The position numbers and the translations under genes were made by a program. A DNA stretch of 64,000 nt, taken from positions 16,688 through 80,687 of the forward strand of contig CACZAH010000002.1 of NCBI GenBank assembly GCA_902779035.1, written 5' to 3'. The stretch's first letter is position 1, and each line of letters starts with the position of its first letter. Under the pieces are notes generated by a model, which saw only the letters and a program-made list of their open reading frames with translations, did not search any database and was not told where the DNA came from. The DNA comes from an uncultured Erysipelotrichaceae bacterium. Lineage in GTDB: Bacteria; Bacillota_I; Bacilli_A; RF39; UBA660. This document shows positions 4,065 through 50,140 of this stretch, piece after piece.

Positions 4065-4091
4065 TTAGCACTCTCTCTTGACAAGTGCTAA
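4065..4091 (+). promoter_or_regulatory. CIRCE-like inverted repeat (HrcA operator): TTAGCACTC-N9-AAGTGCTAA, overlapping the clpB promoter
   Basis: The sequence matches the CIRCE consensus TTAGCACTC-N9-GAGTGCTAA with one mismatch. It lies 37 nt upstream of the clpB start. Confidence 0.75.
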
Positions 4092-4105
4092 AAAAAGAGT
4101 ATAAT
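4078..4105 (+). promoter_or_regulatory. Sigma-A-type promoter for clpB: TTGACA-N16-TATAAT
   Basis: TTGACA at 4078-4083 and TATAAT at 4100-4105 are separated by 16 nt. An AAGGAGGGG RBS follows at 4113-4121. Confidence 0.65.
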
Positions 4106-4127
4106 GTTATATAAGGAGGGGATAATT

Positions 4128-6242
4128 ATGAATATGAATAATCCTTATCAAGAAAATCTTGAAAATGCTTTAGAGAAATATGGTAGAGATATAGTTAAGG
4201 CAGTTAAGGATAATAAGACTGATCCTGTAATAGGCAGGGACGAAGAAATACGTAATGTTACTCGAATACTATCGCGTAAGACTAAGAATAATCCTGTATT
4301 AATTGGTGAACCCGGTGTAGGTAAGACTGCAATTATAGAAGGACTTGCGCAAAGAATAGTTAAGGGAGATGTACCAAATAGTTTAAAGAATAAAACAGTT
4401 TGGGAATTAGATTTAGGTGCATTAATTGCTGGGGCGAAGTTTCGTGGTGAATTTGAGGAAAGACTAAAAGCCGTTTTAAAAGAAATCAAAGAATCTAATG
4501 GCGATATCATTCTTTTTATCGATGAGATACATATGATAGTTGGAGCAGGAGCAGAAGGTGCAATGGATGCAGGTAATCTTTTAAAACCAATGCTTGCTCG
4601 AGGCGAGATATTATGTATTGGTGCGACTACTTTAAATGAATACCGTAAGTATATTGAAAAAGATGGAGCACTAGAGAGAAGATTTCAAAAAGTAATGGTT
4701 AAAGAACCAACAGTAATGGATACTATTACAATACTTAGAGGTTTAAAATCAAGATTTGAAGTATATCATAAAGTAACTATTAAGGATAAAGCATTAGTTG
4801 CTGCTGCTACACTATCTAATAGATATATAACAGATAGATTCTTACCTGATAAGGCTATAGACTTAGTAGATGAGGCATGTGCAACTATTAAAGTACAAAT
4901 GGAGTCAGTTCCTACTGAGATTGATACTTTAACAAGACAAATTATGCAACTTGAAATTGAAAAGGAAGCCTTAAAGAAAGAAAAAGATGATATATCTAAA
5001 TCAAGAATTACTGATATAAATACTAAGCTGGAGGAACTTAAAGAAAAAGAGACTAAGTTAAAAAATGACTGGCAAGAAGAAAAGAATATTAATACATTAA
5101 TTAATAAAAAGAAAGAAGAAATAGAAAAAGCTACTTTAGATTTAGAGCGTGCAGAAGATGAGTACGAGCTTGAAAAAGCTGCAATACTTCGTCACGGTAC
5201 TTTACCTAAGTTAAATAAAGAATTAGAAGAATTGAGAGAAAAGAGCAAAAATACAATTCTTAGTGATGTTGTTGATGATGAAGATATTGCTAAAATAATA
5301 TCTAAATGGACTTCTATTCCTATTAGTAAACTTGTTGGTGGCGAAAGAGAAAAACTAATTAATCTAGAAAAGAATTTAGAGAGAAGAGTTAAAGGACAAA
5401 GTGATGCATTACATACTGTAAGTGAAGCTATAATTAGATCACGAGCAGGCATTAAAGATCCAAATAGACCAATTGGTTCATTTATCTTCTTAGGTCCTAC
5501 TGGTGTAGGTAAAACTGAAGTTGCTAAAAGTTTAGCAGAAGAGTTATTTGATGATGAAAGACACATGGTTAGAATTGATATGAGTGAGTATATGGAATCT
5601 CATTCGGTTGCTAGATTAATTGGTGCCCCTCCAGGATATGTTGGATATGATGAAGGTGGACAATTAACTGAAGCAGTTAGAAGAAATCCTTATAGTATTA
5701 TTCTATTTGATGAAATAGAAAAAGCACATAAAGACATATTTAATGTTTTACTTCAAATACTTGATGATGGTCGTATCACTGATTCACAGGGTAGAACAGT
5801 TGATTTTAAAAACACAATAATAATTATGACATCTAATATTGGTAGTGAGTATATTCTTGATAACAACGAAAATTCTAAAAAGCTTATTGAGACTGAATTA
5901 CACAGTACATTTAAACCAGAATTCTTAAATAGAATAGATGAGATTATTACATTTAATCCTCTTAATAAAGATATTCTATATGAGATTCTTGATAATCAAA
6001 TATTAGATATTAATAAAAGACTTATTAATAAACATATCATTATTGAACTTACTGATAATTGCAAAAATGCAATTATAGATAATGCCTATAATCCTATATA
6101 TGGAGCACGACCTTTAAAAAGATATTTAAGCAAAAACATTGAATCATTAATTGCAAACTCTATTATTAAAGATGAAATAAAACCAAATTCTAAAGTATTA
6201 ATAGATTATATAGATAATAACTATATTATTGCAAACAAATAA
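4128..6242 (+). CDS. clpB: ClpB-type AAA+ disaggregase lacking the N-terminal domain (two NBDs plus a coiled-coil middle domain)
   Basis: [10 protein letters not shown] (NBD1 Walker A), a coiled-coil M-domain, GPTGVGKTE (NBD2 Walker A), and a conserved ClpB C-terminus. The start at 4128 has a strong RBS; the 4104 ATG has none. Confidence 0.9.
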
Positions 6243-6270
6243 GAAGGCTATATTAGTCTTCTTTTATTAT
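6242..6270 (+). terminator. clpB intrinsic terminator (AGAAG-N11-CTTCT + TTTTATTATT)
   Basis: A hairpin followed by a T-rich run sits immediately after the TAA stop. Confidence 0.5.
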
Positions 6271-6321: not shown

Positions 6322-7647
6322 TCATCTAACTACTATTGCCATCGAACCAACTGATGAATACAAATTACTAACCTTACTTTTAGATAGAGTAAATTCATAT
6401 TGTCCCGAAGTTCTCGTCCATGGATCATATATAATAAAATCTCCTGTAATCTTATTATAACCTACAATTAATTGAACGTGTAAATTTCTTGGAACACCAT
6501 TAGACCAATTAACTGGACTGTTATAGGCATATGTTAAATATATAATTACTGGATTACCATTAACAATCTCACTTGCAATATCATCTATACTTGCACCACT
6601 TATATTAGAAATATTTCCATTACCAGATGATGATATTCCATATTCAACTAGTGGATTAGGAGCAATCCAATGAGCAACATCTCTTGGCTCCTTACCAAAT
6701 ATATCTAAGTAAAAACATGTATTAGGATTATCACTTTTTGGCATATTAGAAGCATACGTATATAAATCCATACCACTTAAATATCCCTTGTATTGTAACG
6801 CCATAAGCATTGATGTAGCTTCACATCCATTTAATACACCGTTTCTATTTTGACTTATGTAGGGAACATTCAATTTAACCCAAGCCTCGTTTATCTGTCT
6901 CTGTCTTTCTGCTTCTTCTTGAGCCCTTCTTTCTCTTTCAAGCCTTAACTGTTCTAGTCTTATTCTTTCCTTTTCTCTTGCAATTGCTTCTTTTTCTTCA
7001 ACTATAGTTAAAACAATACTAAGCTTTTCATTTAATTTGCTCTTAATATCTTCTTGTTTTAATGAATCAACTAGTGCTTTTACTTCATTATAAATATTCC
7101 TATTCACACTATCAATCACTACGTTATTATCATAATCACTAAATAAGTTATGAACACTATTATGTGCATTATTAATGTTATCATACTCACTTTTTAATTC
7201 ATTAATTCTATTTTGAATTATTTCTTTATACTTCTTATCTAATTTATTACTTTCTTCATTAAGTTTATTAATATCATCTTCTTTAATTGATGATATAACT
7301 ATATTATCTTTATAATAAATATTAATTTTATTATTTAAATTGATATATTCTTTTGCCCTATATAAATTATTTTTTATATCTAGTACACTATCCTTATTAT
7401 ATACTAATTTTATTTTATCTAAACAAGCATCTAACTCTTTTATAGTTACATTATCTTTTATTAAATCATCATTATACAAAGAGTTACAATAACTAACTGC
7501 ATTTTCATATATTTCTTTTCTTTTTTCAGCTAATTTAATTTTATCAGACTTTATTTTGTTATATAAAAGTATAACTAACAATATAGTAATCAATACAAAC
7601 AATAGTATAGAAATTATAATAATTAATTTTTTGTTACTTCTTATCAT
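6322..7647 (-). CDS. Membrane-anchored protein with a coiled-coil region and a C-terminal C39-like (papain-fold, Peptidase_C39_2/YvpB-like) cysteine-peptidase domain
   Basis: An N-terminal TM segment (LIIIISILLFVLITILLVILLY) and a long K/E-rich coiled coil. The C-terminal domain carries candidate Cys (NGCEATSMLMA) and His (HVQLIVGYN) residues. Confidence 0.45.
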   Translation of the reverse strand: MIRSNKKLIIIISILLFVLITILLVILLYNKIKSDKIKLAEKRKEIYENAVSYCNSLYNDDLIKDNVTIKELDACLDKIKLVYNKDSVLDIKNNLYRAKEYINLNNKINIYYKDNIVISSIKEDDINKLNEESNKLDKKYKEIIQNRINELKSEYDNINNAHNSVHNLFSDYDNNVVIDSVNRNIYNEVKALVDSLKQEDIKSKLNEKLSIVLTIVEEKEAIAREKERIRLEQLRLERERRAQEEAERQRQINEAWVKLNVPYISQNRNGVLNGCEATSMLMALQYKGYLSGMDLYTYASNMPKSDNPNTCFYLDIFGKEPRDVAHWIAPNPLVEYGISSSGNGNISNISGASIDDIASEIVNGNPVIIYLTYAYNSPVNWSNGVPRNLHVQLIVGYNKITGDFIIYDPWTRTSGQYEFTLSKSKVSNLYSSVGSMAIVVR

Positions 7648-7695
7648 ACACTTCTCCTACTTTTTAAGTATACTATAAACATAGAAAAAAAGGAA

Positions 7696-8844
7696 CTATC
7701 TATTTTGTTCCTTTATTAATTTTGCTTGAATAACTATTCTATTACCATTAAAATCTAGACAAGTAGAAAGTGTAAGTAATCTATCTTTTGTAGCAACATT
7801 TATTCCAAAGTCATATATACTACGTGATAGCATGGTATCAATAAATTTCTGATAAGATTCATCATTTTCAAAAGTATGAGTAAGATAATATGACTCTGAT
7901 GGAATTGTATAAATAGATACTATTTGCCACAATGTATTTTTCTCCGGTGTTGATAACTTAATAATCTGATTTTCTTTATTTGTATACCAAGATTCATCTA
8001 ATACCCTCTCTAAGCTACCAAACATAACTTGATCAACACGTCCATGCCCATATATAACAGTATTTTTTAAGAAATTATCAAAATTAGATTTATAGTCAGC
8101 AAATAACCAGCCGGCTACATTATATGATTTATCATAAGAGTGATTTAAATAAAACTCATTATCCCCACCTTGTACAAATGGATAATTAACATTAGTATTA
8201 TTTACATAAATCCATCCCTTAGTATCAGGATTAATATTTTTTAATTCATCAAAATTAACACTAATCATAGTTGTTTTCATATAATTCCAATAATCTTCAC
8301 CATATTTATGATTTTCTGCAGCTTCACCTGTTACTTCTGGAATTTCAGTAGCGCTAAAAGCAATATTTTCTTCTATTTTTGTATTCTTAAGTACATTATT
8401 CATTAGATGATGAACATCTTCACCTTCACTATACCAATTAAACAATGTAACTCCTCCAAAAATAAGAGCAGATAACGATATAAATAACAATATAAAGTAT
8501 TTATTAAAAATCTTAATCTTTTTCTTAGTCTTTTTCTTGCTATAAATAAAACTATCAACAAGATTCTTTATTTCTTTATCATTTTTTAAATTTTTTTCAT
8601 TTAAAGAATCAATGAAACTATCTATTTTAGATTTTCCTTCATCATTAAATTCAAATACCTTAAGCCATCTATCATATGGAGTATAAATATCTTTATCATT
8701 AACTATATCATGTTTAAAGTAAAAATATTTATTATTCTCTTTACAGATAATGAAATCAATATCATTATATTTAAAACTATATATTTTATTATATACTTTA
8801 CCATTATATAAACATAAAGAATTCATACTCATCCCCCTCTTCAA
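7696..8844 (-). CDS. Sortase (class B-like transpeptidase) with an unusually long N-terminal cytoplasmic domain and a TM anchor
   Basis: The C-terminal domain has the sortase catalytic signature: His (VIYGHGRV), TLSTC, and a downstream Arg (NGNRIVIQA). A TM helix (FILLFISLSALIFGGVTLF) follows ~110 aa of N-terminal sequence with no recognisable motif. Confidence 0.75.
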   Translation of the reverse strand: MKRGMSMNSLCLYNGKVYNKIYSFKYNDIDFIICKENNKYFYFKHDIVNDKDIYTPYDRWLKVFEFNDEGKSKIDSFIDSLNEKNLKNDKEIKNLVDSFIYSKKKTKKKIKIFNKYFILLFISLSALIFGGVTLFNWYSEGEDVHHLMNNVLKNTKIEENIAFSATEIPEVTGEAAENHKYGEDYWNYMKTTMISVNFDELKNINPDTKGWIYVNNTNVNYPFVQGGDNEFYLNHSYDKSYNVAGWLFADYKSNFDNFLKNTVIYGHGRVDQVMFGSLERVLDESWYTNKENQIIKLSTPEKNTLWQIVSIYTIPSESYYLTHTFENDESYQKFIDTMLSRSIYDFGINVATKDRLLTLSTCLDFNGNRIVIQAKLIKEQNR

Positions 8845-8916
8845 TTGGTGTTTATACTACCACAAATATAGAAAAAAAGCAAATTAATAAAAAGCAGATC
8901 ACAAGGATCTACTTAA

Positions 8917-10359
8917 TTATTTTTGATGTTTTAATTTATAAATTGATAATCCTGCACCAACAGCACCAATAAGAGTAATTACAACAAACATTGTAATATT
9001 TTTACCAGCTGTATCTGGAGTTTTTGAGTTATACATTACAACACTAGTTTCAACTTCACCAGAGTCTCCTACGTTAAACTTAATTACTTCATAACTTAAA
9101 TCATATCCTGAAGGTGCTTGAATCTCAATTAAAGTATATTCACCTTTATCAAGTTCAAGATAATGAGGTTCAGTACCTGATACCCATCTATCAATCTCTT
9201 CACCCTTAGAATTTTTAAGTACTAAAGTCGCTCCTGGTAGTTCTTTCTTAGTTGTAATGTCCTGCTTACTAATCTTTACTTTATACTTGTCTTTTAATGT
9301 GTTGTACATAGTAATCTCAGCAACTTTTCCATCGGCCTTTAACTCAAACTCAATAACTTCTTCAGTTAATTTATAACCGTCTGGAGCAATAATCTCAGTT
9401 AAAGAATATTTTCCTGGCTCTAAACCTTCAATATAATGAGCTTCATCACCAGATACCCACTTATCAACTTCATCACCATTTGAATTTTTAAGTACTAAAG
9501 TCGCTCCTGGAAGCTCTTTTTTATTTGTTAAATCTTGTTTACTAATTTTTAACTTAGTTATTTTCTTAGTAATATTTCCACTAATACTTTTATCACTAGT
9601 CTTATCTGACTTTTCAACTTCATTTATTGTACTAGCCTGATTACCGCTACCACAATCATATTTTTTGGCAATACTCATACTTTTATTTGCACTTACCTTA
9701 ACATTAACAGTAGTAGTTTCATCAACCTTAACAGATGTATTTGGCACTTTAACATAGAACTCATTTCCATTTTGTTCATATGTAGCACCTTCCGCACCAC
9801 TAACACTTATACTGTATTCATCACTACCAGATACAGTTACTTTATTAGAAATATAATTATCTCCATTTAAAGTAAAAGTTAACTCGTCTGTACTTAAACT
9901 AACACTATAATCCTTCTTAGCCGCATTATAAGCGTTAACAGCTGCATCATAATAAGATTGAATTGAATCAACAACTCTTATATTATTAACTTCATCGTGA
10001 GTTTCATAATCATATAAGAATTTATTAATAGCAAGTTCTGCATAATAATAATTTTGTGTACTAGGTGATGCATTATACTTATCAATTATTGCAGCAACTC
10101 CAGCAGCACCTGCATAACTCCATTGTTCACTACTTAATTTACAGCTTGTTCCAACACCATCAATGTTAAAAGTTGTACAGAAAACTACTCCGTTTCCATA
10201 CACTTTATGATAAAGTTCAATTCCTCCATCATAACTAATTACACTTTCCTTAGTAATACCATCAATACTATTTGGAAGTGCATTTACTCCACTTGTACCA
10301 ATTATTGATACAATTCCTATTACAAACACTAGTAATAGATACTTTATTTTGTTAAACAT
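8917..10359 (-). CDS. Secreted surface protein with two tandem SpaA/CnaB-type domains, an N-terminal domain shared with the 67-2007 protein, and the C-terminal tail TPDTAG + TM + KLKHQK
   Basis: Signal peptide; two repeats of KKELPGATLVLKNS.GxExDxWVSG.EPHY.E...YTL.EI.AP.GY; and a C-terminal sorting-signal-like architecture without LPXTG. Confidence 0.6.
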   Translation of the reverse strand: MFNKIKYLLLVFVIGIVSIIGTSGVNALPNSIDGITKESVISYDGGIELYHKVYGNGVVFCTTFNIDGVGTSCKLSSEQWSYAGAAGVAAIIDKYNASPSTQNYYYAELAINKFLYDYETHDEVNNIRVVDSIQSYYDAAVNAYNAAKKDYSVSLSTDELTFTLNGDNYISNKVTVSGSDEYSISVSGAEGATYEQNGNEFYVKVPNTSVKVDETTTVNVKVSANKSMSIAKKYDCGSGNQASTINEVEKSDKTSDKSISGNITKKITKLKISKQDLTNKKELPGATLVLKNSNGDEVDKWVSGDEAHYIEGLEPGKYSLTEIIAPDGYKLTEEVIEFELKADGKVAEITMYNTLKDKYKVKISKQDITTKKELPGATLVLKNSKGEEIDRWVSGTEPHYLELDKGEYTLIEIQAPSGYDLSYEVIKFNVGDSGEVETSVVMYNSKTPDTAGKNITMFVVITLIGAVGAGLSIYKLKHQK

Positions 10360-16166: not shown

Positions 16167-17198
16167 CTAACACTCCTTCTTTAACGCATGTAAATATTCA
16201 ATAGTAGTTTTCTTTTCTACTTCTTTATTCTTACTTGCTTTATATCTTTTATGATTACACTCATATCTTTTATAAATACCATATTTTTTCATTATATCTT
16301 CTATCTCTTTAAAACTCATAATACCTTCATCATTGTAACTTAAGAATATATATTTAAACTTTGCATTCTTAATTAAATCTTCAAACTCACGAGCTACCTC
16401 ATTCTTTTTATTATATTTAGATTTAAATTGTTCAATTCTAGTTCCGGCTTTACCACTAATCTCGGGATAATCAGAGTAAGCAATAGTTTCTAATATATGA
16501 TAATTAGTTGCATACTTTCTTGAATTATAAGGTGGATCTAAGTATAGTATATCACCTTTAATCTCTTTAATAAGTTCATTTGAGTCTTCAATATATACCT
16601 TACATTTACTATCTTTATTAATAACTATATCTATAGGTTTTAATTCCATAGTTTTCTCAGCAGACTTCTTCATACTCTTTAGGAATGCTTCATATACTGA
16701 TGCAGTATTGGCTACTTTATCAGCTGCCTCTAGTAAACAAGTAAGTAAATAATAATACTCATTCTTAGTAATAACTTCTTTCTTATACCACTTCTCTATA
16801 CAATCTCTAATAGAATCTATTTTAATTGCATTCTCGCTACTATAGTAGCACCTTTCATACTTACTACCAAGAGTACCTTCTAATGTATAATTATTGTATA
16901 TAAATCCATGATAATTATTAAGTTTATTTAAATAGATAAACGGATCACTTATACCAATTAATTTTAATCCAGAAAAACTAGGTATGCTATTATTCTCTAA
17001 GTAATGCTTATTCATTACATAACTATAAAACTGTGTATCATTTGCAAGAATATCAAAACCTAATGATTTAAACCTCTTACCAACTACACCAGTACCCGCA
17101 AATATATCACAAAATACTTTATTATCCTTACCAGCAAAATCAATAATAGATTCCTCTATAAAATCAATTATCGAATGTTTAGAACCTATATAATTCAT
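16167..17198 (-). CDS. Dam-family (MethyltransfD12) N6-adenine DNA methyltransferase; no cognate endonuclease nearby
   Basis: YIGSKHS (cf. Dam WAGGK), DIFAGTGVVG (the FxGxG AdoMet motif) and LYLDPPYN (DPPY catalytic motif), in Dam order. Confidence 0.8.
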   Translation of the reverse strand: MNYIGSKHSIIDFIEESIIDFAGKDNKVFCDIFAGTGVVGKRFKSLGFDILANDTQFYSYVMNKHYLENNSIPSFSGLKLIGISDPFIYLNKLNNYHGFIYNNYTLEGTLGSKYERCYYSSENAIKIDSIRDCIEKWYKKEVITKNEYYYLLTCLLEAADKVANTASVYEAFLKSMKKSAEKTMELKPIDIVINKDSKCKVYIEDSNELIKEIKGDILYLDPPYNSRKYATNYHILETIAYSDYPEISGKAGTRIEQFKSKYNKKNEVAREFEDLIKNAKFKYIFLSYNDEGIMSFKEIEDIMKKYGIYKRYECNHKRYKASKNKEVEKKTTIEYLHALKKEC

Positions 17199-17294
17199 AC
17201 AACCTCTCCCCTACCTGTCTGTATAAATTATACACTAAATTTATAATAATTTAAAGTATATATCAAAAAAACTGATTTCTCAGTTTTATAAAGG

Positions 17295-18557
17295 TTACTC
17301 GAGTGCAGATTTTTTTAAGTTAATAACAGGTCTTATTCCTATACCATAATTAATTATACCATCACTTTTACTTATTCTTCCATCAGGATTCATTCTATAT
17401 ACATCATTTATATTATATTGGCTCATCGTCCAATAAGTAGTTCCCACATCATAAACCCACGCTGGAACATCAGAGTTTTTATTATCCGATTCTCCATATC
17501 CTAAATTATTTCTAAGCTCATCTACCGTTATCAATCGTATTTTATAATTCAAATTATCTTCAGCTAAATCCAAAGAATTGATTTTTTCACTTGCCCAAGA
17601 ATCTATAATATATTTAACATCACTTTGATTATAATCTGTAATGCAATTTGTTAATACATATGAATTGTTTACATAACCACATCTATCAGATGAATAATAT
17701 GCTGTCCCACCATATATTCCTTTGGCAAACACTTCTCCAGCTGATCTAAATGTATATTTATTAATATGGCCTACACCATATGTATTTACTTCCTCTATTT
17801 TAAACGGTTCTGCCTTTAATAAAGTTATATAGTCTTGATGTTTATCACTATCAGCTATTACATAATAATTTACATCATTATAAGTAACATAATCACCTAC
17901 TTTATACGGCCTATATACAATTTCTCCATATTTATAATTATTTTCACTATTATCCAATACCATTTCGTTATCGACTGAACACCTAGTTAAATATACTGTG
18001 CCATCATAGTTGATAGATACATCACAACTTACTTCTTTATCTAATGGTGGTAGTTCTAGAGTTGTATAATCACTAGGGTATTCATTATGTTCATCATGAT
18101 ATTTTTTTAAAGCATCTTCTAAATTCTTACCATATGTATCCACATATTCTTGATTTGTCATTTTAAGTATTCCATAATGGTAATAGCCATCTATTTCTTT
18201 ATCATCTTTTACTAATTTACCATTTACCTTACATTCTGACAAGTATATTGAATAATCAGGATTAATTCTACTTGTTTTACATTCTACTTTATTACCTTTA
18301 TATTCTATTTCTAGTTTATCAAAATTATCAGGGTAGGCTAGATGTACTAACTGATAATCAGCCATTGCATATTCTACCGCTCTACCATATCCATCTACAC
18401 TTCTTTTATTTGCAACATCTTTTACTCTTCTAATTGTATTTAAAAGTAATGGTGCGACTATTAATGATATTACTGCAAGAATTACTAGGACTGCCATTAA
18501 TTCAATGAGTGTAAAAGCATTAATTTTCTTTTTTCTTACCTTTTTTATTCTACTCAT
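17295..18557 (-). CDS. Large (420-aa) protein with a type IV prepilin-like N-terminus (class III signal peptide; prepilin peptidase / N-methylation site)
   Basis: MSRIKKVRKKKINA|FTLIELMAVLVILAVISLIVAPLL is a basic leader followed by FTLIELM and a hydrophobic helix. The C-terminal 370 aa has no recognisable motif. The start was chosen at the second ATG, which has an RBS. Confidence 0.6.
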   Translation of the reverse strand: MSRIKKVRKKKINAFTLIELMAVLVILAVISLIVAPLLLNTIRRVKDVANKRSVDGYGRAVEYAMADYQLVHLAYPDNFDKLEIEYKGNKVECKTSRINPDYSIYLSECKVNGKLVKDDKEIDGYYHYGILKMTNQEYVDTYGKNLEDALKKYHDEHNEYPSDYTTLELPPLDKEVSCDVSINYDGTVYLTRCSVDNEMVLDNSENNYKYGEIVYRPYKVGDYVTYNDVNYYVIADSDKHQDYITLLKAEPFKIEEVNTYGVGHINKYTFRSAGEVFAKGIYGGTAYYSSDRCGYVNNSYVLTNCITDYNQSDVKYIIDSWASEKINSLDLAEDNLNYKIRLITVDELRNNLGYGESDNKNSDVPAWVYDVGTTYWTMSQYNINDVYRMNPDGRISKSDGIINYGIGIRPVINLKKSALE

Positions 18558-18641
18558 AATGCATCTACCTTTCATTGATATTATATCATAAAAAATCGTA
18601 TTTAGATATTTTTTTCTTATATTTTTTATTATGATGAGAAA

Positions 18642-19097
18642 ATGATGTTAGGCGATATGATGATTGCTGAACGTTTAAAAGATATTAGAATAGAAAATGA
18701 TTTAACACAAACTCAAATAGCTAAAATACTTAATACTACTCAAAATAGTTATAACAGATGGGAGAATAATGTTGAATTAATTAGTTTAAAGAAATTAACT
18801 AGGGTGTGCAACTACTTTAATACAAGTATGGATTACTTAGTTGGTATAACCCGAAATAATATAGGTAATGGCAAACACGATTTTAATTATAGTATTGTTG
18901 GAAATAATATTAAAATTTTTAGAAAAGATAATAAATTAAGCCAGAAAGATCTAGCAACTCTTCTTAATACATCACAATCTACAATAAGTGCTTATGAAGC
19001 AGGTAAAACTATAATTCTCACTGCATTTGCATTAGAAATAGTTAAGAAATATAACATCTCTTTAGATTGGTTATTTGGAAGAAAAGAAAAAAGTTAA
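18642..19097 (+). CDS. XRE-family transcriptional regulator with two tandem HTH_XRE domains
   Basis: Two copies of the pattern L..R..LTQ..IA..L....S.Y..WE.G... (residues 8-65 and 85-145). Confidence 0.7.
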   Translation: MMLGDMMIAERLKDIRIENDLTQTQIAKILNTTQNSYNRWENNVELISLKKLTRVCNYFNTSMDYLVGITRNNIGNGKHDFNYSIVGNNIKIFRKDNKLSQKDLATLLNTSQSTISAYEAGKTIILTAFALEIVKKYNISLDWLFGRKEKS

Positions 19098-19117
19098 GAA
19101 AAACTTAACTCTAACAA

Positions 19118-20144
19118 CTACATATGTTCTTTTTTACTAAACTCAATTAATTCATCAAAATCAGATAAATAGTTTTGATCTTGTCTTATTCGATATTTTT
19201 CATATTCAGATAACGCAAGTGTATCGGCTATTTCTCTTTTTATCTTTTCATTATCTTTTAAAATATTGTACTCATTCAGTTTTAAAAACAATTCTAATTT
19301 TTCTTTCCATTCCTTCATCGAAATAATATGACCTAATTTAACTTGTCTTTCAGCATAATCCAAATACATTGATACTAAATTATTCAATTCAGTTATTTCT
19401 TCTTTATATAAGTAGTTTTTAGCAACAACTACATCACTTTCTAATATTTTACCTTTAGGTGCATTCTTCCAAGTTTGCAAACCCATATTATCTTTTTTTT
19501 TGAATCTACTCTATTATAAATATTTCAGGAGCATTCATTCCAGTTATAGCAAAATAAAGCTTATTCTGTACATTTTTATAAAACTCTATAGTCGTTTCAC
19601 TATTTTTATCATAGTCATAGCTACATTCTTTATATATGTCGGTAATTTTTTGATAGAATCTTCTTTCACTTGCTCTTATTTCTTTTATTTTTAATAGCAA
19701 TTCATCAAAATAGTCTTTACCAAATTTTGGACCATTTTTTAACAGTTCAGAATTTACTACAAAACCTTTTTTTATATACTCCTTTAATGTATTAGTTGTC
19801 CAAATTCTAAACTGTGTAGCTTCAAAACTATTAACTCTATAGCCAACTGCGATTATCGCATCTAAACTATAAAAACTAGTATTATACTTTTTTCCATCAT
19901 TAGCAGTTATTCGAATTTTTCGAATAACTGAATCTTCCTCTAATTCTCCACTATTAAATATCTCTTTTAAATGATAGTTTATAGTATTAACCTTAACTGA
20001 AAATAATTCAGCCATAGTTTTTTGAGTTAGCCAAAAATCTTCACTATCATATAGAACTTCTATGATTTTACTTCCTGTTTCATTTTGATATAAAACTATA
20101 CTATTTAAATTAGAAACTTTATTCATATCATACACCTCAAACAT
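19118..20144 (-). pseudogene. RhuM-family (Virulence_RhuM) gene split into two ORFs (19506-20144 and 19118-19486) by a frameshift in an A9/T9 homopolymer tract at 19493-19501
   Basis: The N-terminal ORF carries YSLDAIIAVGYRVNSFEATQFRIWTTNTLKEYI, the hallmark RhuM motif. The adjacent out-of-frame ORF reads like the RhuM C-terminal region. The junction coincides with a 9-nt homopolymer. Confidence 0.6.
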
Positions 20145-20208
20145 TTAATTCAATTTACTTTAAATAGAAACATTTTATATTTATTACATTTTTAACGTAA
20201 AAAGAACA

Positions 20209-20241
20209 AAAGGAACTCCTCGATTATCTTGGAGTTCCTTT
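20209..20241 (-). terminator. Intrinsic terminator of the tRNA cluster (AAAGGAACTCC-N11-GGAGTTCCTTT + T-run on the minus strand)
   Basis: An 11-bp perfect inverted repeat. On the minus strand it is followed by TTTTGTTCTTTTT. Confidence 0.7.
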
Positions 20242-20253
20242 AATTTTCAAAAT

Positions 20254-20328
20254 GGTGTCTCGCAGGCGATTCGAACGCCTGACCCTTTGATTAAAAGTCA
20301 AATGCTCTACCTACTGAGCTAGCGAGAC
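20254..20328 (-). tRNA. tRNA-Lys (anticodon UUU), CCA encoded
   Basis: The cloverleaf was folded manually. The anticodon loop is CTTTTAA and the acceptor stem GCGAGAC/GTCTCGC. Confidence 0.8.
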
Positions 20329-20345
20329 ATATAATTAAAACAAGA

Positions 20346-20420
20346 TGGCTGCCTCGGCTAGATTCGAACTAGCGCATGCCACAGTCAAAGTGTGGTGCCT
20401 TACCGCTTGGCTACGAGGCA
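20346..20420 (-). tRNA. tRNA-Gln (anticodon UUG), CCA encoded
   Basis: The anticodon loop CTTTGAC is flanked by the stem CCACA/TGTGG. The 3' end is GCCACCA. Confidence 0.75.
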
Positions 20421-20433
20421 ATAACCTTATAAG

Positions 20434-20518
20434 TGGTGGAGGGAGATGGATTTGAACCATCGAACCCGAAGGAACAGATTTACAGTCTGCCGCGTTTGGC
20501 CACTTCGCTATCCTTCCA
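20434..20518 (-). tRNA. tRNA-Tyr (anticodon GUA), long variable arm, CCA encoded
   Basis: 85 nt long. Anticodon loop CTGTAAA; a GGTTCAAATCC T-arm. Confidence 0.75.
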
Positions 20519-20523
20519 TAAAA

Positions 20524-20600
<77 letters not shown>

Positions 20601-20620
20601 ATAATAATAAAAAAATAAAA

Positions 20621-20697
20621 TGGTGGGCGATATAGGACTCGAACCTATGACCCCTTGCTTGTAAGGCAAGTGCTCTAACCAACTGAGCTAATCGCCC
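20621..20697 (-). tRNA. tRNA-Val (anticodon UAC), CCA encoded
   Basis: Anticodon loop CTTACAA with the stem CTTGC/GCAAG. GGTTCGAGTCC T-arm. Confidence 0.75.
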
Positions 20698-26608: not shown

Positions 26609-28069
26609 ATGCGTATTTATAAAACTGTGGATAAGAATATAGATTATATTAAAAATATTAATCATAATAGTAGTGATATTGTATCTAGAATAATAACTAA
26701 TAATAATATAAAAATAGGATATGTATATTTAGAAAGCGTAACTAGTGATGATAAAGTAAGTGAGTTTTTAAATAAAAGCATTATAGGTAAGAATACCCAA
26801 GATATATTTAGTAATATTGAAGATAGTATTTATAATAGTCATATTACCACTTTAAAAGAATTAGATAATATATTTTACTATTTATCATCTGGTTTTACAG
26901 TAATATTTATAGATAATTATGATATGTGTATTACAGTTGAAACTAGGATGAGTTTGGATAGGGGAGTTAGTGAGGCAACAAGTGAGCCTATAGTTAGAGG
27001 TCCTAAAGATAGTTTTACTGAGAATAATGCTATTAACTTAGGTTTAATTAGAAAAAGAATTAAAGATGAAAACTTAATCTTTGATGAAGTAAAAGTTGGT
27101 AAACGTACTAAAACTAAGGTAAGTGTTGCTTATATAAAGGATATAACTAATAGTAAAAATGTAATTAAAGTAATTGATAAACTTAAAAGTATAGATATAG
27201 ATGGAATATTAGATAGTGGTTATGTAAGAGAGTTTTTACGTGATCAATCAAGTACAGTATTTCCTGGAATGATTAGTACAGAACGACCTGACCTAGCTTG
27301 TACGTCATTACTAGATGGTAAGATAGTTGTACTTGTTGAAAATACTCCTTATGTATTAATAATGCCTGGTTTATTTATTGATTACTTTCATTCTCCTGAA
27401 GATAATTACGAGAAGCCTATTAATGCATCTTTCTTAAGATTACTTAGAATACTATGTTTTATAATTACAATATCTGTTCCTGCTTTATACGTTGCCTTAA
27501 TGACTTTTAATCCAGAAATAATACCTGATGAACTACTCATATCTCTCGCACTACAAAGAGATGGAGTTCCTTTTCCAACTGCTCTTGAAATACTTATATT
27601 TGTAATTGTATTTGAAATACTTAGACAAGCTGATGTTCACTCGCCAACAGTTAGTGGATCGGCTATGAATATAGTTGGAGCCTTAATACTTGGAGATGCG
27701 GCAGTAAATGCAGGAATAGTATCTCCTATCGCAATTATAATAGTTGCAGTTACATCTATTTGTGAACTAGTATTTTATGATGTAGATATGATTAATGCAG
27801 TAAGATTCTGGAGAATAATATTTATAATTGCATCTTTATTCTTAGGTATTATTGGTTTTGTATCATGTATGTTTATATTTGTAACTAAACTCTCTAGCAT
27901 TGTATCTTTAGATATACCTTACTTAACCCCTATAAGTCCTCTATCTACAACAGGTATAAAGAACTATTTATTTAGAATAAAGAGAACTAAGTTAAATAAT
28001 CGAGCTAAGTATTTAACTCGTAATATTAAAAGGATGGTGAGTCATGAAAAGACTAATACTAGTAATTAG
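26609..28069 (+). CDS. Spore germination receptor subunit A (GerA/GerKA family)
   Basis: The soluble N-terminal domain plus a C-terminal membrane domain with PFPTALEILIFVIVFEILRQADVHSPTVSGSAMNIVGALILGDAAV is typical of the GerAA family. The operon order A-C-B matches gerK. Confidence 0.85.
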   Translation: MRIYKTVDKNIDYIKNINHNSSDIVSRIITNNNIKIGYVYLESVTSDDKVSEFLNKSIIGKNTQDIFSNIEDSIYNSHITTLKELDNIFYYLSSGFTVIFIDNYDMCITVETRMSLDRGVSEATSEPIVRGPKDSFTENNAINLGLIRKRIKDENLIFDEVKVGKRTKTKVSVAYIKDITNSKNVIKVIDKLKSIDIDGILDSGYVREFLRDQSSTVFPGMISTERPDLACTSLLDGKIVVLVENTPYVLIMPGLFIDYFHSPEDNYEKPINASFLRLLRILCFIITISVPALYVALMTFNPEIIPDELLISLALQRDGVPFPTALEILIFVIVFEILRQADVHSPTVSGSAMNIVGALILGDAAVNAGIVSPIAIIIVAVTSICELVFYDVDMINAVRFWRIIFIIASLFLGIIGFVSCMFIFVTKLSSIVSLDIPYLTPISPLSTTGIKNYLFRIKRTKLNNRAKYLTRNIKRMVSHEKTNTSN

Positions 28070-29216
28070 TTTAATCATTATATGTACAGGGTGTTTTAAT
28101 TACAGTGAACTAAATGATTATGCTATCGCAACAGGTATGGCTATTGATAAGTCTGATGATGGATATGAGGTTAGTATGCTTATTTCTAATTCACCTAAAT
28201 CTAGTGAAAAGAATTATACAACAGTAGTATATAGCGGTAAAGGTAAAACTATATATGAAGCAATTAAAGAGATAGGTCTAATTTCTCCTAAAGAGTTATA
28301 CATAGGTCATCTATCAATACTTATAATATCAGATAGTGTTGCTAAAGATGGAATTAATTCCGTACTAGAGTTCTTACTACAAGAGCCTCGTTCTAAGAAA
28401 AACTTTTATGTCGCACTTTCTAAAGATAATAAAGCAAAAGATGTATTATCAATAACTTCTCCATTAACAGACTTTCCATCACAGAATCTAGCTACCAATC
28501 TTAAGGATACAACTAATTTACAAGGAAGTATAAGTGCGATAGATTTTAATACTCTTTTATATAAACTTGTAAATAAAGGAGTAGATCTTACTTTAAATGG
28601 ATTTGTTATTGTAGGAGATATTAAAGATGGAGTTAAAGAGTCAAATATGGAAACTAATAAGCCTGCATCTTATATAAAGTTAACTAATCAAGCCATATTT
28701 AAAAATGATAAATTAATTGCTTGGGCTAATAAAAACGAGAGTAGGGGAATTAATATTATTAATGATAAGATTCATGAGATGTATATTAAAGTTAAATGTG
28801 ATAATGGATTTATTGTAGTTGATACTAATACTTTAGAAACTAAAAAAAGTGTTGATAAAAAAGGTGATGTAACACTAAATACTACAGGTAAAGCATCTAT
28901 TAGCGAGATTACATGTGATATAGATCTTACTAAGCCTAGTAATATTAAAAGAATAGAAAATAAAGTTAATAATAAAATACAAGATTTAGAATTAAAAGCA
29001 ATTAATCTAAGCAAGAAATATTCTACTGATATATTTGGTATAGGTCTTATGTATTATCAAGATTATCCACATATTTATAATAAGATTAAAGATTATGATA
29101 AGTTTTATAAAAATATTAAGTTTAAAAGCAATGTAGATATAAAGATTAATACATCTGGTTCTATTAAACAAACTCTAAAGAATATAGAAGGGAGTAGATA
29201 TGAAGAAGATAACTAA
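28044..29216 (+). CDS. Spore germination receptor subunit C lipoprotein (GerAC/GerKC family)
   Basis: The lipobox LIIICTGC and the family-typical size. The start overlaps gerA-like by 26 nt. Confidence 0.75.
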   Translation: MKRLILVISLIIICTGCFNYSELNDYAIATGMAIDKSDDGYEVSMLISNSPKSSEKNYTTVVYSGKGKTIYEAIKEIGLISPKELYIGHLSILIISDSVAKDGINSVLEFLLQEPRSKKNFYVALSKDNKAKDVLSITSPLTDFPSQNLATNLKDTTNLQGSISAIDFNTLLYKLVNKGVDLTLNGFVIVGDIKDGVKESNMETNKPASYIKLTNQAIFKNDKLIAWANKNESRGINIINDKIHEMYIKVKCDNGFIVVDTNTLETKKSVDKKGDVTLNTTGKASISEITCDIDLTKPSNIKRIENKVNNKIQDLELKAINLSKKYSTDIFGIGLMYYQDYPHIYNKIKDYDKFYKNIKFKSNVDIKINTSGSIKQTLKNIEGSRYEEDN

Positions 29217-30300
29217 CTTACAATTAGGCTCACTAGTATTCTTTTTAATGCATGCATATTTTATTGGTATTACTTTTAGTTCTATTATTGTATCTTTAAA
29301 GCAAGACTCTTACCTTGGTATTATAGTAGGTTCTATTATAGGTTTTATACCACTATTAATTTACTTATATATATTTAATTATGAACCTAATCTAAATCTA
29401 AATGAGAAGAATATAAAGTTATTTGGTAAGTATATCGGTAATATATTAAATATAATTATTACTATATTTACATTTTTAATTATTACAATTGTATTCAGTA
29501 ATCTAGTTACTATAATACATACTGATTACTTAAGTAAAACCCCTATAATACTTCTTATTATTACTTTCTTAATACCTATATATTATTCTGTTTATACAGG
29601 AATAAAATCTATCTGTAGAGCATCTTTAATATTCTTCTATATGACAATAATTCTAATAATAATATCTAATTTAGGATTACTTATCCAAGTAGATATAAAT
29701 AACTTTAAACCATTCTTTTACAATAACTCTAATCTACTTAATGGAAGTATATATTTTGCTATATATAATGTTACTCCTCTTTATTTAATTAATATAATAC
29801 CTAAGAATGATATTATGAATAACAATAAGACTACTAAGTATATAATTATATTCTATTTATTATCAGTTATATCATTACTTGCAGTATCATTAAATATTAT
29901 TGGAATATTTGGTATAAGACTTACTAGTATGTATCAGTATCCTGAGTTTCAAATACTAAAACATGTATCTATTATAGGTATATCATCTAGAATAGATAGT
30001 ATATTATTTATAACATGGATATTTTCAATACTTATATTTGTAATAGTAGGACTATATTATGTAGTTAGTACATCACACTCTCTAATAAAAGAAAAAAACA
30101 ATATATTTTTAACAATATATTGTATATTAATATTATCACTTACACTCTTAGTACCTAATGATTTATTTATTAACTTTCTATCTATTAAGATACTACCACC
30201 AATAATAATTATATTTACCCTTACAGTATTTATATTAATGTATCTTAAAATTAATTATACCAGTAAAGTAAAGCGCACAAAGAGTACCTGCAACAAGTAG
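29200..30300 (+). CDS. Spore germination receptor subunit B (GerAB/GerKB, APC-superfamily permease-like)
   Basis: A polytopic membrane protein with ~10 TM helices. It sits in the operon and overlaps the C-subunit gene. Confidence 0.7.
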   Translation: MKKITNLQLGSLVFFLMHAYFIGITFSSIIVSLKQDSYLGIIVGSIIGFIPLLIYLYIFNYEPNLNLNEKNIKLFGKYIGNILNIIITIFTFLIITIVFSNLVTIIHTDYLSKTPIILLIITFLIPIYYSVYTGIKSICRASLIFFYMTIILIIISNLGLLIQVDINNFKPFFYNNSNLLNGSIYFAIYNVTPLYLINIIPKNDIMNNNKTTKYIIIFYLLSVISLLAVSLNIIGIFGIRLTSMYQYPEFQILKHVSIIGISSRIDSILFITWIFSILIFVIVGLYYVVSTSHSLIKEKNNIFLTIYCILILSLTLLVPNDLFINFLSIKILPPIIIIFTLTVFILMYLKINYTSKVKRTKSTCNK

Positions 30301-33647: not shown

Positions 33648-34211
33648 TCAAAACAAAATATTTGTGATTATTATACTTGCAATTATCCCTATTAAATCTG
33701 CACATAATCCTGCCCAAAGTGCATATCTTATTTTTTTAATTCCTACACTACCAAAGTACAAAGTTATTACATATAAGGTAGTATCAGTTGAGCCTTGCAT
33801 AACTGAAGCAAGTAATCCTACAAATGAATCAGGTCCATGATTATCATAAATGCTATTTAAAAGAGCAAGTGATGCACTTCCAGATATTGGACGTATTGCA
33901 GCTAAAGGAAGTATTTCTAATGGTACATTTAGTTTATAAAAAAGCGGTTTAAATAAGCCTAATACAAATGATAAGAATCCACTATCAATTAATATATTAA
34001 CTCCAAGTATCATAGCTAGAAAGGTTGGAAAAAGACTCATTATCATTCCTACTGAATCCTTAGAACCATCTAAGAAAGTATCATATACTGGTACTTTTTT
34101 TCTTACTCCATATATTATTATTAATAAAACTATTAAAGGTATTATTAAATTAGAAATATATTTAATGATGATACCACTTTGTAAATATTTTATCCACAAA
34201 TATTCCTCCAA
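33648..34211 (-). CDS. spmB: Spore maturation protein B (nucleoside-transporter-like membrane protein)
   Basis: A polytopic membrane protein located immediately after spmA and dacB, matching the conserved dacB-spmA-spmB operon. Confidence 0.7.
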   Translation of the reverse strand: MEEYLWIKYLQSGIIIKYISNLIIPLIVLLIIIYGVRKKVPVYDTFLDGSKDSVGMIMSLFPTFLAMILGVNILIDSGFLSFVLGLFKPLFYKLNVPLEILPLAAIRPISGSASLALLNSIYDNHGPDSFVGLLASVMQGSTDTTLYVITLYFGSVGIKKIRYALWAGLCADLIGIIASIIITNILF

Positions 34212-34752
34212 TCGTTGAACATGTAGTACCTATGATGCAGGCAAGAAGTATAGATGTAGGATTTACACTCTTATACATCATACGCATAGATATAATAGTT
34301 GTTGGAACGAGTGTTACTCCACTAGTATTAATTATTAAGAATGTAATCATAGACCTGCTTGCAGTATCTTTCTTTTTGTTTAGATTTTGTAACGATTCCA
34401 TAGCCTTTAACCCAAAAGGAGTAGCCGCACTACCTAGTCCAAATACGTTAGCTATTATATTACTTGCTATATAACTTAATGACTCATGTCCAGCAGGTAT
34501 TTCAGGAAATAATTTAGTAAGAACTGGTGAAATTAAATTTGAAAATTTATCTAATAGTTTAGATTTTTCTGCAATGTTCATAAGTCCCATCCAAAGAGCA
34601 AGCACCGGAAATATTTGAATAATCATATCAAGACTAGTTTTTGAACTTTCCATTATTGTATTATTAACAACATCTACATTATTAGTTACAATTGCATATA
34701 TAATTCCACAAAATATAAATATAGTCCAAATTATATTTACCACAAACGCCAC
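34162..34752 (-). CDS. spmA: Spore maturation protein A
   Basis: A Gate-domain-like membrane protein. It overlaps the dacB stop and sits in the operon context. Confidence 0.7.
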   Translation of the reverse strand: MAFVVNIIWTIFIFCGIIYAIVTNNVDVVNNTIMESSKTSLDMIIQIFPVLALWMGLMNIAEKSKLLDKFSNLISPVLTKLFPEIPAGHESLSYIASNIIANVFGLGSAATPFGLKAMESLQNLNKKKDTASRSMITFLIINTSGVTLVPTTIISMRMMYKSVNPTSILLACIIGTTCSTIGGIFVDKIFTKWYHH

Positions 34753-35789
34753 TTCTTCTTATTCTTTGTTTTTAACTTTGCATATATAGGAGCACTGTAT
34801 ATTTGTTTATCTCCTAAGTTTACTATAACACTTCCAACATTCTCTCTATTCTTTATTTTCTTAATCTTTTTTATTTTATATTTAATATTAATAGATTCTT
34901 TCTCACTATCATCTAGTATATATTTAAAGTCTTCTTTTATATATAAGTTATAGTCTTTATAATAATTCTCATTATAGATATTGATATATCCTTTTTTTAA
35001 AATAGAATAGCTTTTATAATTCTCAAATCCATAATCAAATAAATCCATATGATCTTTAAAATCATTACCATCATTAAGAGTTACGGCAACTAAATTTGTA
35101 TTATCTTTAGAAGCTGTTGTTACAAGTGTCCTTTTAGCAATCTTAGTATATCCTGTTTTACCACCTGTTGTATATTTATAAAGTCTAAGTAATTTATGTT
35201 TGTTATGCCAAATATAAGTATTTTTATTTGTTTCTAACTTATACTCTTTTGTCTTAACTATCTTTCTATAATCACTAATTTTCATTGCATAACTAGTAAG
35301 TATTGCCATATCATATGCAGTTGAATAATTGGCTTTATCTTCATCAAGTCCACTAGGATTATTAAATTTACTATTTTTCATACCTATTTCTTTCGCTTTA
35401 TGATTCATCATTATAATAAAGTTATCAACACTACCACCTACATAATCAGCAATAGCTAGAGCTGCATCATTACCACTTCTAAGCATTAATCCATATATTA
35501 AATCTCTTAACTTCATCTTTTCTCCAATTTTAATGTATATAGCAGATCCATATGCTTTATTTATTGAACTATTTATTTTTACCTCTTCATCTAATTTACC
35601 TGATTCTATAGCTAGAACAGCTGTCATTATTTTAGATATACTTGCAACAGAACTTACTTCATGAATATTTTTAGAATATATTATTCTATTATTATCTGTA
35701 TCCATTAGTATAGCAGATTGAGCAGTGGTACTTATACCTTTTACTATGAAAGGAAGCAGTAGTGTAATTATCAGTATTATTTTTTTCAT
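34737..35789 (-). CDS. dacB: D-alanyl-D-alanine carboxypeptidase (sporulation-type PBP5*)
   Basis: Signal peptide; the SxxK motif (ASISKIMT); the SxN motif (LRSGND); ~350 aa. Followed by spmAB. Confidence 0.8.
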   Translation of the reverse strand: MKKIILIITLLLPFIVKGISTTAQSAILMDTDNNRIIYSKNIHEVSSVASISKIMTAVLAIESGKLDEEVKINSSINKAYGSAIYIKIGEKMKLRDLIYGLMLRSGNDAALAIADYVGGSVDNFIIMMNHKAKEIGMKNSKFNNPSGLDEDKANYSTAYDMAILTSYAMKISDYRKIVKTKEYKLETNKNTYIWHNKHKLLRLYKYTTGGKTGYTKIAKRTLVTTASKDNTNLVAVTLNDGNDFKDHMDLFDYGFENYKSYSILKKGYINIYNENYYKDYNLYIKEDFKYILDDSEKESINIKYKIKKIKKIKNRENVGSVIVNLGDKQIYSAPIYAKLKTKNKKKWRLW

Positions 35790-35825
35790 ATGTCACCTAC
35801 ATAAGTATATGAAAAAAAATACTAG

Positions 35826-36503
35826 TTATGCCTTGTAATAATTAATTAATACATCACTAATATTTTTAGCAATCCTTTTGTGATACCATTTCTGTCTTAA
35901 TAAGTATCTATCATTAGCATTAGATAAAAAACCTATTTCAATAAGTACTCCTGGTATAGTAATTTTCCTATTAAGTAACATTGTTTTAATTTCTTTAACC
36001 TCTCTTTTAGTATTTAAATTTTTCTTAAAATGTGCCTGAAATAATTTAGCAATCTCTAGATTTTTACTATTTACGTCATCATAAAATACTTGTGCCCCAT
36101 GCCAGGTAGTTGACGATACTGAATTTAGATGAATTGATATATACATATCCGCACCTGAACCATTTATGATTTTAGCTCTGTTATTTAAATCACTTCTTTT
36201 TCTCGCGCCGGTTCTCATATAGCTTAAATCGTAATCCCCATATCTAGTCATATATACTGTAGCTCCTAAACTCTCTAATTGTTCTTTTATGGCAAAGCAT
36301 ATATCTAAATTAATATCTTTTTCATAGATATCTTTATAAATAGAACCTGGATCTAAACCACCATGTCCTGCATCTATATAAAATGTGCGACCAAATAATG
36401 GAAGAGATGTAGCTTTAATTTTATATAGTCCACCAATAAGTAATAAAAATATAAATACTAAAAAAACATATAGTTTGTTTGATTTGTGTTTATATATAAA
36501 CAT
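35826..36503 (-). CDS. cwlD: N-acetylmuramoyl-L-alanine amidase (Amidase_3), CwlD-like
   Basis: An N-terminal TM; FYIDAGHGGLDPGS (zinc ligands); a C-terminal E...H pattern. ~225 aa, matching CwlD. Confidence 0.7.
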   Translation of the reverse strand: MFIYKHKSNKLYVFLVFIFLLLIGGLYKIKATSLPLFGRTFYIDAGHGGLDPGSIYKDIYEKDINLDICFAIKEQLESLGATVYMTRYGDYDLSYMRTGARKRSDLNNRAKIINGSGADMYISIHLNSVSSTTWHGAQVFYDDVNSKNLEIAKLFQAHFKKNLNTKREVKEIKTMLLNRKITIPGVLIEIGFLSNANDRYLLRQKWYHKRIAKNISDVLINYYKA

Positions 36504-49274: not shown

Positions 49275-49904
49275 ATGAAAAAAATCGTATTAAATCATTG
49301 GATGAATATCATCAAAAACAATAAAAGATATGATAATGTAAAACTTGCGGAAATTGAATATGGATTAACTGCTATATATTTAACTTTTTCTAAATTAATA
49401 GTAATTGCTCTATTATCTATATTGTTAGGTATATTTAAAGAAATGATAATCTTTTTATTAATTTATAACGTCTTAAGAATGCCATCATTTGGAATACACG
49501 CAACAAAAAGTTGGATATGTCTTCTAACGTCATCAATTCTGTTTATTGGATTACCAATTGTTTGTTTAAATATTCATTTAAGTATAGCAATAAAGATAAT
49601 TATTGGTGTAATTGAATGTTTCCTAATGTTTAAGAACAGCCCAGCAGACACAAAAAAAAGACCTATAGTTAATCCTAAACGAAGATTAACATATAAGTTT
49701 ATTTCTACAATACTAGCAATTACTTTTGTAGTACTAAGTATCACAATAAATAATATTTTTATATCAAATTGTTTAGTATTCGGATTAATTCTTCAAAACG
49801 TTTTAATATCTCCATTAACATATAAGATATTTAAACAACCTTATAATAATTATAAAGAATTTCTAAGATTAAATCCAGATTTTCTAAATAAGAAAGCGTG
49901 TTAA
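49275..49904 (+). CDS. agrB: AgrB-family membrane peptidase that processes the autoinducing peptide
   Basis: ~200 aa with 6 TM helices. The AgrB-conserved region LRMPSFGIHATK (cf. R..sGG.HA.) and PADTKKRPI. Followed by an AgrD-like ORF. Confidence 0.8.
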   Translation: MKKIVLNHWMNIIKNNKRYDNVKLAEIEYGLTAIYLTFSKLIVIALLSILLGIFKEMIIFLLIYNVLRMPSFGIHATKSWICLLTSSILFIGLPIVCLNIHLSIAIKIIIGVIECFLMFKNSPADTKKRPIVNPKRRLTYKFISTILAITFVVLSITINNIFISNCLVFGLILQNVLISPLTYKIFKQPYNNYKEFLRLNPDFLNKKAC

Positions 49905-49948
49905 TGTTATAAAGCATTTAACATAGAAATTCAGAAAGGAGGGTAGTT

Positions 49949-50068
49949 ATGGGATTTTTAGCAAACATTTTAGCTGCACTTGGTATTGGAAGTGCTGCGA
50001 CTGGATCACAAGCATGTCATTTATGGATACTTGACGAGCCAGAATGCCCAGAAAATTTAATCAAATAA
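49949..50068 (+). CDS. agrD: AgrD-like autoinducing peptide precursor (39 aa)
   Basis: An AAAGGAGGG RBS. The amphipathic leader MGFLANILAALGIGSAATGS; the Cys-containing core SQACHLWIL; and the AgrD-typical acidic tail DEPECPENLIK (cf. DEVEVPKEL in S. aureus and HQPEEP in C. perfringens). Confidence 0.75.
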   Translation: MGFLANILAALGIGSAATGSQACHLWILDEPECPENLIK

Positions 50069-50082
50069 TAATTTATTTATGG

Positions 50083-50126: not shown

Positions 50127-50140
50127 ACAGTTCTTTATAA

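Follow-up and report, generated by a model that had tools for sequence, protein, structure and literature searches.

The stretch of DNA analysed here (64 kb with a G+C content of 28%, referred to below as the window) contains a clpB gene whose product begins at the first AAA+ module, with a CIRCE inverted repeat and a promoter directly upstream of the coding sequence and a terminator-like hairpin at its end (Table 1). Its upstream neighbour is a divergently oriented gene for a short-chain dehydrogenase.

Table 1. Features of the clpB locus, in window coordinates
Feature	Position	Strand	Residues	Remarks
CIRCE operator, predicted HrcA binding site	4065..4091	+		17/18 arm bases as in the consensus
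CIRCE, left arm	4065-4073
CIRCE, spacer	4074-4082			9 nt
CIRCE, right arm	4083-4091
-35 hexamer TTGACA	4078..4083	+		in the CIRCE spacer plus the first base of the right arm
-10 hexamer TATAAT	4100..4105	+		16-nt spacer from the -35 hexamer
Ribosome-binding site AAGGAGGGG	4113..4121	+		6 nt before ATG 4128; read from the sequence
clpB coding sequence	4128..6242	+		704 aa plus stop, without a Clp_N domain
NBD1 (Pfam AAA match)	4296-4691		57-188
M-domain coiled coil	4893-5261		about 256-378
NBD2 (AAA_2)	5466-5945		447-606
D2-small	5961-6200		612-691
Terminator-like hairpin	6241..6263	+		overlaps the clpB stop codon; 10-pair stem with 3 G-C pairs, then a T-rich tail

The mechanically derived open reading frame starts at ATG 4104, and an earlier reading of the locus made from the sequence alone (the sequence-only reading) had accordingly given the protein 712 aa. 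This length is not credible because that ATG falls within the -10 box; the real start is ATG 4128, and the public gene calls for an identical locus likewise give 704 aa. The strong ribosome-binding site noted in the same reading is indeed present (AAGGAGGGG), but it belongs to ATG 4128 and not to the upstream ATG to which it had been assigned. The first codons of the gene (4128-4139) form a short ATGAAT tandem repeat, the copy number of which differs between strains, such that the N-terminus reads MNMNMNN in P0121, MNMNN in the window and MNN in P0065; this variation may reflect slippage at the start codon.

Inspection of the upstream region shows that the letters of the inverted repeat, TTAGCACTC-TCTCTTGAC-AAGTGCTAA, depart from the CIRCE consensus TTAGCACTC-N9-GAGTGCTAA by one mismatch. 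It is the sole match in the 64 kb when up to three mismatches are allowed, against a chance expectation of 0.01, which bears out the presence of the element as first proposed. The single departure in the arms is a G to A change, and the same base completes the TTGACA hexamer. The promoter is a perfect one of the sigma-70 type, with 12/12 positions matched in a promoter scan. An overlap of the CIRCE with both promoter hexamers had been claimed: this holds for the -35 hexamer, which lies inside the CIRCE, but not for the -10 hexamer, which lies 8 bp downstream of its end. Judging from the position of the -10 hexamer, transcription probably starts near 4112, and the CIRCE would therefore not be transcribed. 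The direct heptad repeat (A/G)GTCAAA-NAN-(A/G)GTCAAA, the operator of CtsR, was not detected near clpB at up to two mismatches by a scan which recovers boxes upstream of the Staphylococcus, Anoxybacillus and Planococcus clpB genes; the earlier view that CtsR control is absent here thus stands. As for the repressor, hrcA was not found among the window ORFs scanned or the genes called 10 kb beyond each end (about 82 kb in all), and hence we infer its presence in this organism. A second CIRCE is likewise absent from the window and from the 10 kb beyond either end, and neither hrcA nor a second CIRCE adjoins clpB in loci L001, L002, L037 and L052.

The protein itself matches the Pfam AAA, AAA_lid_9, AAA_2 and ClpB_D2-small models, and positions 144-850 of the 853 in TIGR03346, the NCBIfam equivalog model for ClpB. 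An alignment to Thermus thermophilus ClpB (1QVR), free of large gaps, pairs its residues 6-694 with residues 144-839 of that protein and covers the Walker motifs, both pore loops (with GAPPGYVGY visible) and the entire M-domain. Judged by these alignments, it possesses features by which a ClpB/Hsp104 disaggregase is recognised, namely Walker A and B motifs and pore loops in its two AAA+ modules, plus the long coiled-coil M-domain, which is inserted in NBD1 and serves as the docking site for DnaK in this family. The score against TIGR03346 (1119.2 bits) nevertheless falls below the curated cut-off of 1232.1 because the first 143 positions of the model are missing.

Those positions correspond to the N domain, and the start of the match at position 144 together with the lack of a Pfam Clp_N match upholds the original description of a ClpB that begins at NBD1. 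The sequence-only reading had allowed for an N domain encoded upstream under an alternative reading. However, a tblastn search with ten Clp_N domains returned nothing better than E = 0.05 in all six frames of the window, and an in-frame TAA at 4089-4091, inside the CIRCE itself, closes the clpB reading frame on its upstream side. This stop, along with the divergent dehydrogenase gene, leaves no space for an N domain. No Clp_N coding sequence was found upstream of the other N-domain-less clpB loci either. Two substitutions considered as potentially co-varying with the loss of the domain, Tyr to Phe in pore loop 1 and Tyr to His in the M-domain (equivalent to E. coli Y503), were set aside as both also occur in full-length ClpBs. 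Similarly, locus L056, which at first appeared to lack the N domain, possesses one and had been affected by masked N bases.

The two traits of the locus, the CIRCE operator and the missing N domain, can be placed in a wider context by a survey in which the 300-bp upstream regions of 78 clpB genes from a genome collection were scanned for both CIRCE and CtsR boxes. A CIRCE precedes 16 genes for full-length ClpB (854-900 aa), from Lachnospiraceae, Oscillospiraceae, Christensenellaceae and other Clostridia; this set includes the cultured Hominiventricola aquisgranensis as well as one assembly labelled Bacilli (L066, a weaker match), and its operators often hold the same embedded TTGAC. In four further loci the CIRCE stands before a clpB without the N domain, the assemblies being labelled Bacilli, Tenericutes, Izemoplasmatales and, in one case that is probably mis-binned, Muribaculaceae. 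CtsR boxes were recovered at 6 of the 78 loci, five of them from Bacillales or Lactobacillales (Staphylococcus, Anoxybacillus, Planococcus and two Lactobacillales assemblies), with the sixth from an assembly labelled Clostridiales. In Planococcus maritimus (L068, 2930-5110), a perfect CtsR box, AGTCAAAGATGGTCAAA, precedes a 711-aa clpB which lacks the N domain and has no Clp_N coding sequence upstream. This combination of a CtsR box with an N-domain-less product, in a classical representative of Bacillales, indicates that the N domain was lost more than once.

On the basis of these operator sequences, clpB outside Bacillales and Lactobacillales seems commonly to be under HrcA control. The survey suggests that such control is widespread in Clostridia and the Mollicute-related lineages, with CtsR control being the state of Bacillales and Lactobacillales; given the CIRCE elements at full-length clpB genes of Clostridia, HrcA control appears ancestral in Firmicutes. 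The clostridial loci, such as those of Hominiventricola aquisgranensis (L031), Clostridium sp. OM02-18AC (L005) and Lachnospiraceae and Oscillospiraceae assemblies, share their operator with the window. There, the CIRCE lies 60-120 nt upstream of the ATG, often with TTGAC in the spacer and right arm. However, these ClpBs, unlike that of the window, retain an N domain of about 150 aa, and at most of these loci TTGACA stands one base out of the register that it has with the right arm in the window. The CtsR-controlled clpB genes of Bacillales and Lactobacillales (e.g., Listeria, Enterococcus, Staphylococcus) encode the same disaggregase and are also under negative heat-shock control, but their operator is the direct heptad repeat (L044, L046, L068, L006, L016), which the window locus lacks.

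Phylogenetic analysis of the shared region of ClpB by neighbour-joining, a single-gene tree that contains no cultured Mollicute or Erysipelotrichia sequences, recovers the window protein and its N-domain-less, CIRCE-bearing relatives as a clade with 100/100 bootstrap support, to which assemblies labelled Tenericutes and Bacilli belong. The Izemoplasmatales ClpB, which has no N domain, and the full-length ClpB of the Bacilli assembly L066 join this clade at 66/100. Among labelled genomes, the nearest ClpBs belong to assemblies designated Bacilli, Tenericutes and Izemoplasmatales; these proteins all lack the N domain and their genes all have a CIRCE. These affinities fit a host lineage related to the Mollicutes. 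The sequence-only reading had regarded an HrcA-controlled, N-domain-less ClpB as typical of Mollicutes and their relatives and, along with the absence of L30, as a hint of an Erysipelotrichia-like lineage. Taken together, the two traits do mark a well-supported clade of metagenome assemblies labelled Bacilli or Tenericutes; however, neither is specific to Mollicutes when taken singly, as the CIRCE also precedes the 16 full-length genes, nearly all clostridial, and the N domain is also missing in Planococcus maritimus, under a CtsR box.

Other genes in the window speak to the nature of the host. In accordance with the spore former envisaged earlier, it carries a spore germination receptor operon (GerA, GerC and GerB-type permease), a dacB-spmA-spmB cluster and a gene for a CwlD-like amidase (26609-30300 and 33648-36503), and additionally codes for sortases, SpaA pilins and an LCP protein. 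These genes show the host to be a walled spore former. The samples in which the same genes occur include human gut metagenomes. The absence of L30, also noted at the outset, is confirmed by the S5 gene (57197-57802) abutting the L15 gene (56754-57197) with no rpmD between them. Base 57197 belongs both to the stop codon of S5 and to the start codon of L15; S5, at 201 aa, has an N-terminal extension of ~45 residues ahead of its Pfam domain. As uL30 has been lost in almost all Mollicutes but also in many other bacteria (PMC7782861), its absence adds little to the inference of lineage. Erysipelotrichia, the sister group of Mollicutes, include spore formers (PMC3749518).

Against this background, we propose tentatively, and as something less than probable, that the loss of the N domain combined with retained HrcA/CIRCE control could be a synapomorphy of a large, mostly uncultured radiation of low-GC gut Bacilli that also yielded the Mollicutes, and that it could have arisen in walled, spore-forming ancestors. 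If so, the 'minimal' disaggregase of Mollicutes would predate the loss of the wall and the minimisation of the genome, and even a cell with a complex, spore-forming life cycle could manage with an N-domain-less ClpB alone. A rather doubtful alternative sees in the combination a derived, Mollicute-specific trait, and in the host a relative of Erysipelotrichia and Mollicutes in which clpB switched from CtsR to HrcA and shed its N domain in a reduction of the Mollicute style. The strongly supported clade, consisting only of N-domain-less, CIRCE-bearing ClpBs, the attachment of Izemoplasmatales to it, the missing uL30 and the presence of spore formers in the sister group of the Mollicutes would all agree with such a scenario. 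It is at odds, however, with the CIRCE at clostridial full-length genes, with the independent loss of the domain in the CtsR-controlled Planococcus gene and with the grouping of the full-length L066 protein with Izemoplasmatales; further, uL30 is not missing from Mollicutes alone, and gene transfer can mislead a single-gene tree.

The ClpB proteins of Mycoplasma pneumoniae and M. genitalium are about 700-715 aa long and lack the N domain. In Mollicutes, experimental work places clpB in the HrcA regulon (PMC5138195, PMC7737663, PMC4245973, PMC12597100) and responds to heat or to HrcA (PMC5138195, PMC7737663, PMC4245973). As in the window, a CIRCE is found at the clpB promoter in M. pneumoniae (MPN531), M. 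genitalium, M. gallisepticum, S. melliferum and M. feriruminatoris. In the last of these, the CIRCE of the lon promoter immediately precedes the Pribnow box, and the consensus of the clpB and lon elements contains the same AAGTGCTAA arm as the CIRCE of the window (PMC12597100). In contrast to Mollicutes, the window host is walled, carries sortase-dependent pili as well as genes for sporulation and germination, and uses the standard genetic code; its clpB promoter, unlike theirs, has a full consensus -35 hexamer, and hrcA does not adjoin clpB as it does in M. feriruminatoris.

Evidence on whether the operator is functional comes from comparison with orthologs. The 120 best homologs of the window protein are 78-100% identical to it and none has a Clp_N domain; they measure 700-707 aa, the exceptions being two fragments and a protein extended by a low-complexity tail at its C terminus. 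P0065 (804 aa, 82% identical), initially considered a longer form, was discarded as such: its N terminus is the same as that of the window protein and the extra residues are C-terminal. They make up a Q-, N- and P-rich tail of ~100 residues, which the window ClpB lacks. Upstream regions were compared for orthologs of 79-95% identity, some with different gene neighbourhoods, and for four loci of 61-76% from the genome collection, where the closest among the matches listed has 76% identity. All of them contain a CIRCE with the embedded TTGAC, and 39-44 nt separate its end from the ATG, except in one lineage with a longer leader. When the promoters of ten orthologs (61-100% protein identity) are aligned, conservation is confined to the CIRCE arms, TTGAC, TATAAT and the ATG; the TATA of the -10 hexamer is invariant and its last two bases nearly so. 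Conservation of the repeat, on which the sequence-only reading had made its case depend, was thus recovered, and this footprint constitutes strong sequence evidence for a functional CIRCE operator.

It has to be weighed against the proposition that the inverted repeat is a relic or the site of another factor, with clpB being expressed constitutively from its consensus promoter. The failure to see hrcA in about 82 kb would be compatible with this, as would the decayed CIRCE elements or merely weak induction reported from some Mollicutes (PMC5138195, PMC4245973). However, the arms are invariant or nearly so amid intergenic DNA that is otherwise scrambled, and a relic would not be maintained in this way. 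Moreover, functional CIRCE elements of M. gallisepticum tolerate up to two mismatches (PMC5138195), as opposed to the one seen here. We accordingly consider a relic improbable and favour the reading of the repeat as an HrcA operator.

A still less probable proposal is that the protein is another Hsp100, whether a stand-alone disaggregase (ClpL, ClpG) or a partner of ClpP (ClpC, ClpE). Both AAA+ modules are common to the Hsp100 paralogues, and the NCBI label of a homolog, P0072, is merely 'AAA family ATPase'. However, ClpB is by far the best NCBIfam model, aligned end to end from position 144 (1119 bits, as against 775 for ClpV and 737 for ClpA). Additionally, the full-length M-domain fits 1QVR without large gaps precisely where the alignments with ClpC and ClpA break, and no ClpP-binding-loop insertion is seen in the alignment. 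The uninformative label instead exemplifies a systematic under-annotation, in which N-domain-less ClpBs fall below the TIGR03346 cut-off. Finally, the notion that the short gene is a truncation artefact or pseudogene (through a 5' deletion, frameshift or assembly break), the functional protein being full length or absent, might draw on full-length ClpB being the common form and on the NCBIfam score under the cut-off, but is effectively refuted by the recurrence of 700-707-aa genes, identical or nearly so, on dozens of independent contigs, the conserved promoter, operator and ribosome-binding site directly upstream, the in-frame stop with no Clp_N coding in any frame, and a protein that is 57% identical to its top library match, aligns over its whole length to solved ClpB structures and has all its motifs intact. 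The evidence thus supports an authentic clpB here, one which lacks the N domain and is preceded by a CIRCE operator.

As a whole, the locus is very probably best explained as a single-gene heat-shock unit in which the consensus sigma-A promoter would drive clpB. While the temperature is normal, GroEL/ES would keep an HrcA dimer active, and this dimer would sit on the CIRCE and block RNA polymerase at the -35 region; unfolded proteins would then titrate GroE, causing HrcA to be released and the very strong promoter to fire. Situated upstream of the predicted transcription start, the CIRCE would serve as an operator in DNA only and not in the mRNA. The product would form a hexamer that corresponds to ClpB80, the short isoform of E. 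coli, with both AAA+ rings and a complete M-domain, which in conjunction with DnaK would pull polypeptides from aggregates without recourse to an N-terminal substrate-binding domain. Cooperation with DnaK is to be expected from the intact M-domain and both AAA+ rings. The analysis itself establishes the sequence elements, the domain architecture and the conservation of both; HrcA binding, heat induction and DnaK dependence are predicted here by analogy, from what is known of these families (PMC7053576, PMC7737663, PMC12597100).

In E. coli, ClpB80 is a short isoform made from an internal GTG at codon 149 (PMC6389857). Residue 4 of the window protein aligns with E. coli residue 150, which puts its start about two residues before that of ClpB80. 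Both ClpB80 and engineered N-domain-less ClpBs (e.g., PDB 4CIU) resemble the window protein in keeping NBD1, the M-domain and NBD2 and in having nearly the same N-terminal boundary. However, E. coli produces the short and full-length forms from one gene, their mixture working best (PMC6389857), whereas in the window the short form is the sole product. The locus hence offers a natural case of an organism that makes short ClpB only, and could be used to probe the role of the N domain in vivo. As both the N-domain-less ClpB and the CIRCE operator are already known elsewhere, no new mechanism is implied, and the value of the locus lies mainly in annotation and evolutionary book-keeping.

Several neighbouring features of the window may also be recorded. 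The clpB, dehydrogenase and methionine gamma-lyase genes are flanked on both sides by a sortase-dependent pilus region (67-2007 and 6322-10359 in the window; 11292-15837 in L092), which encodes several proteins with SpaA domains along with two sortases and a C39-like peptidase; in L093, a gene for a DUF4143/AAA_14 ATPase is inserted beside clpB. Further along, a probable variable island (16167-20697) adjoins five tRNA genes (Val, Thr, Tyr, Gln, Lys) and encodes a D12 adenine methyltransferase, a regulator with a double HTH_3 and a RhuM-family protein. An agr-like quorum-sensing set is located at 49275-52143, where the gene for an AgrB homolog, on the + strand, faces those for a GHKL histidine kinase and a LytTR response regulator.
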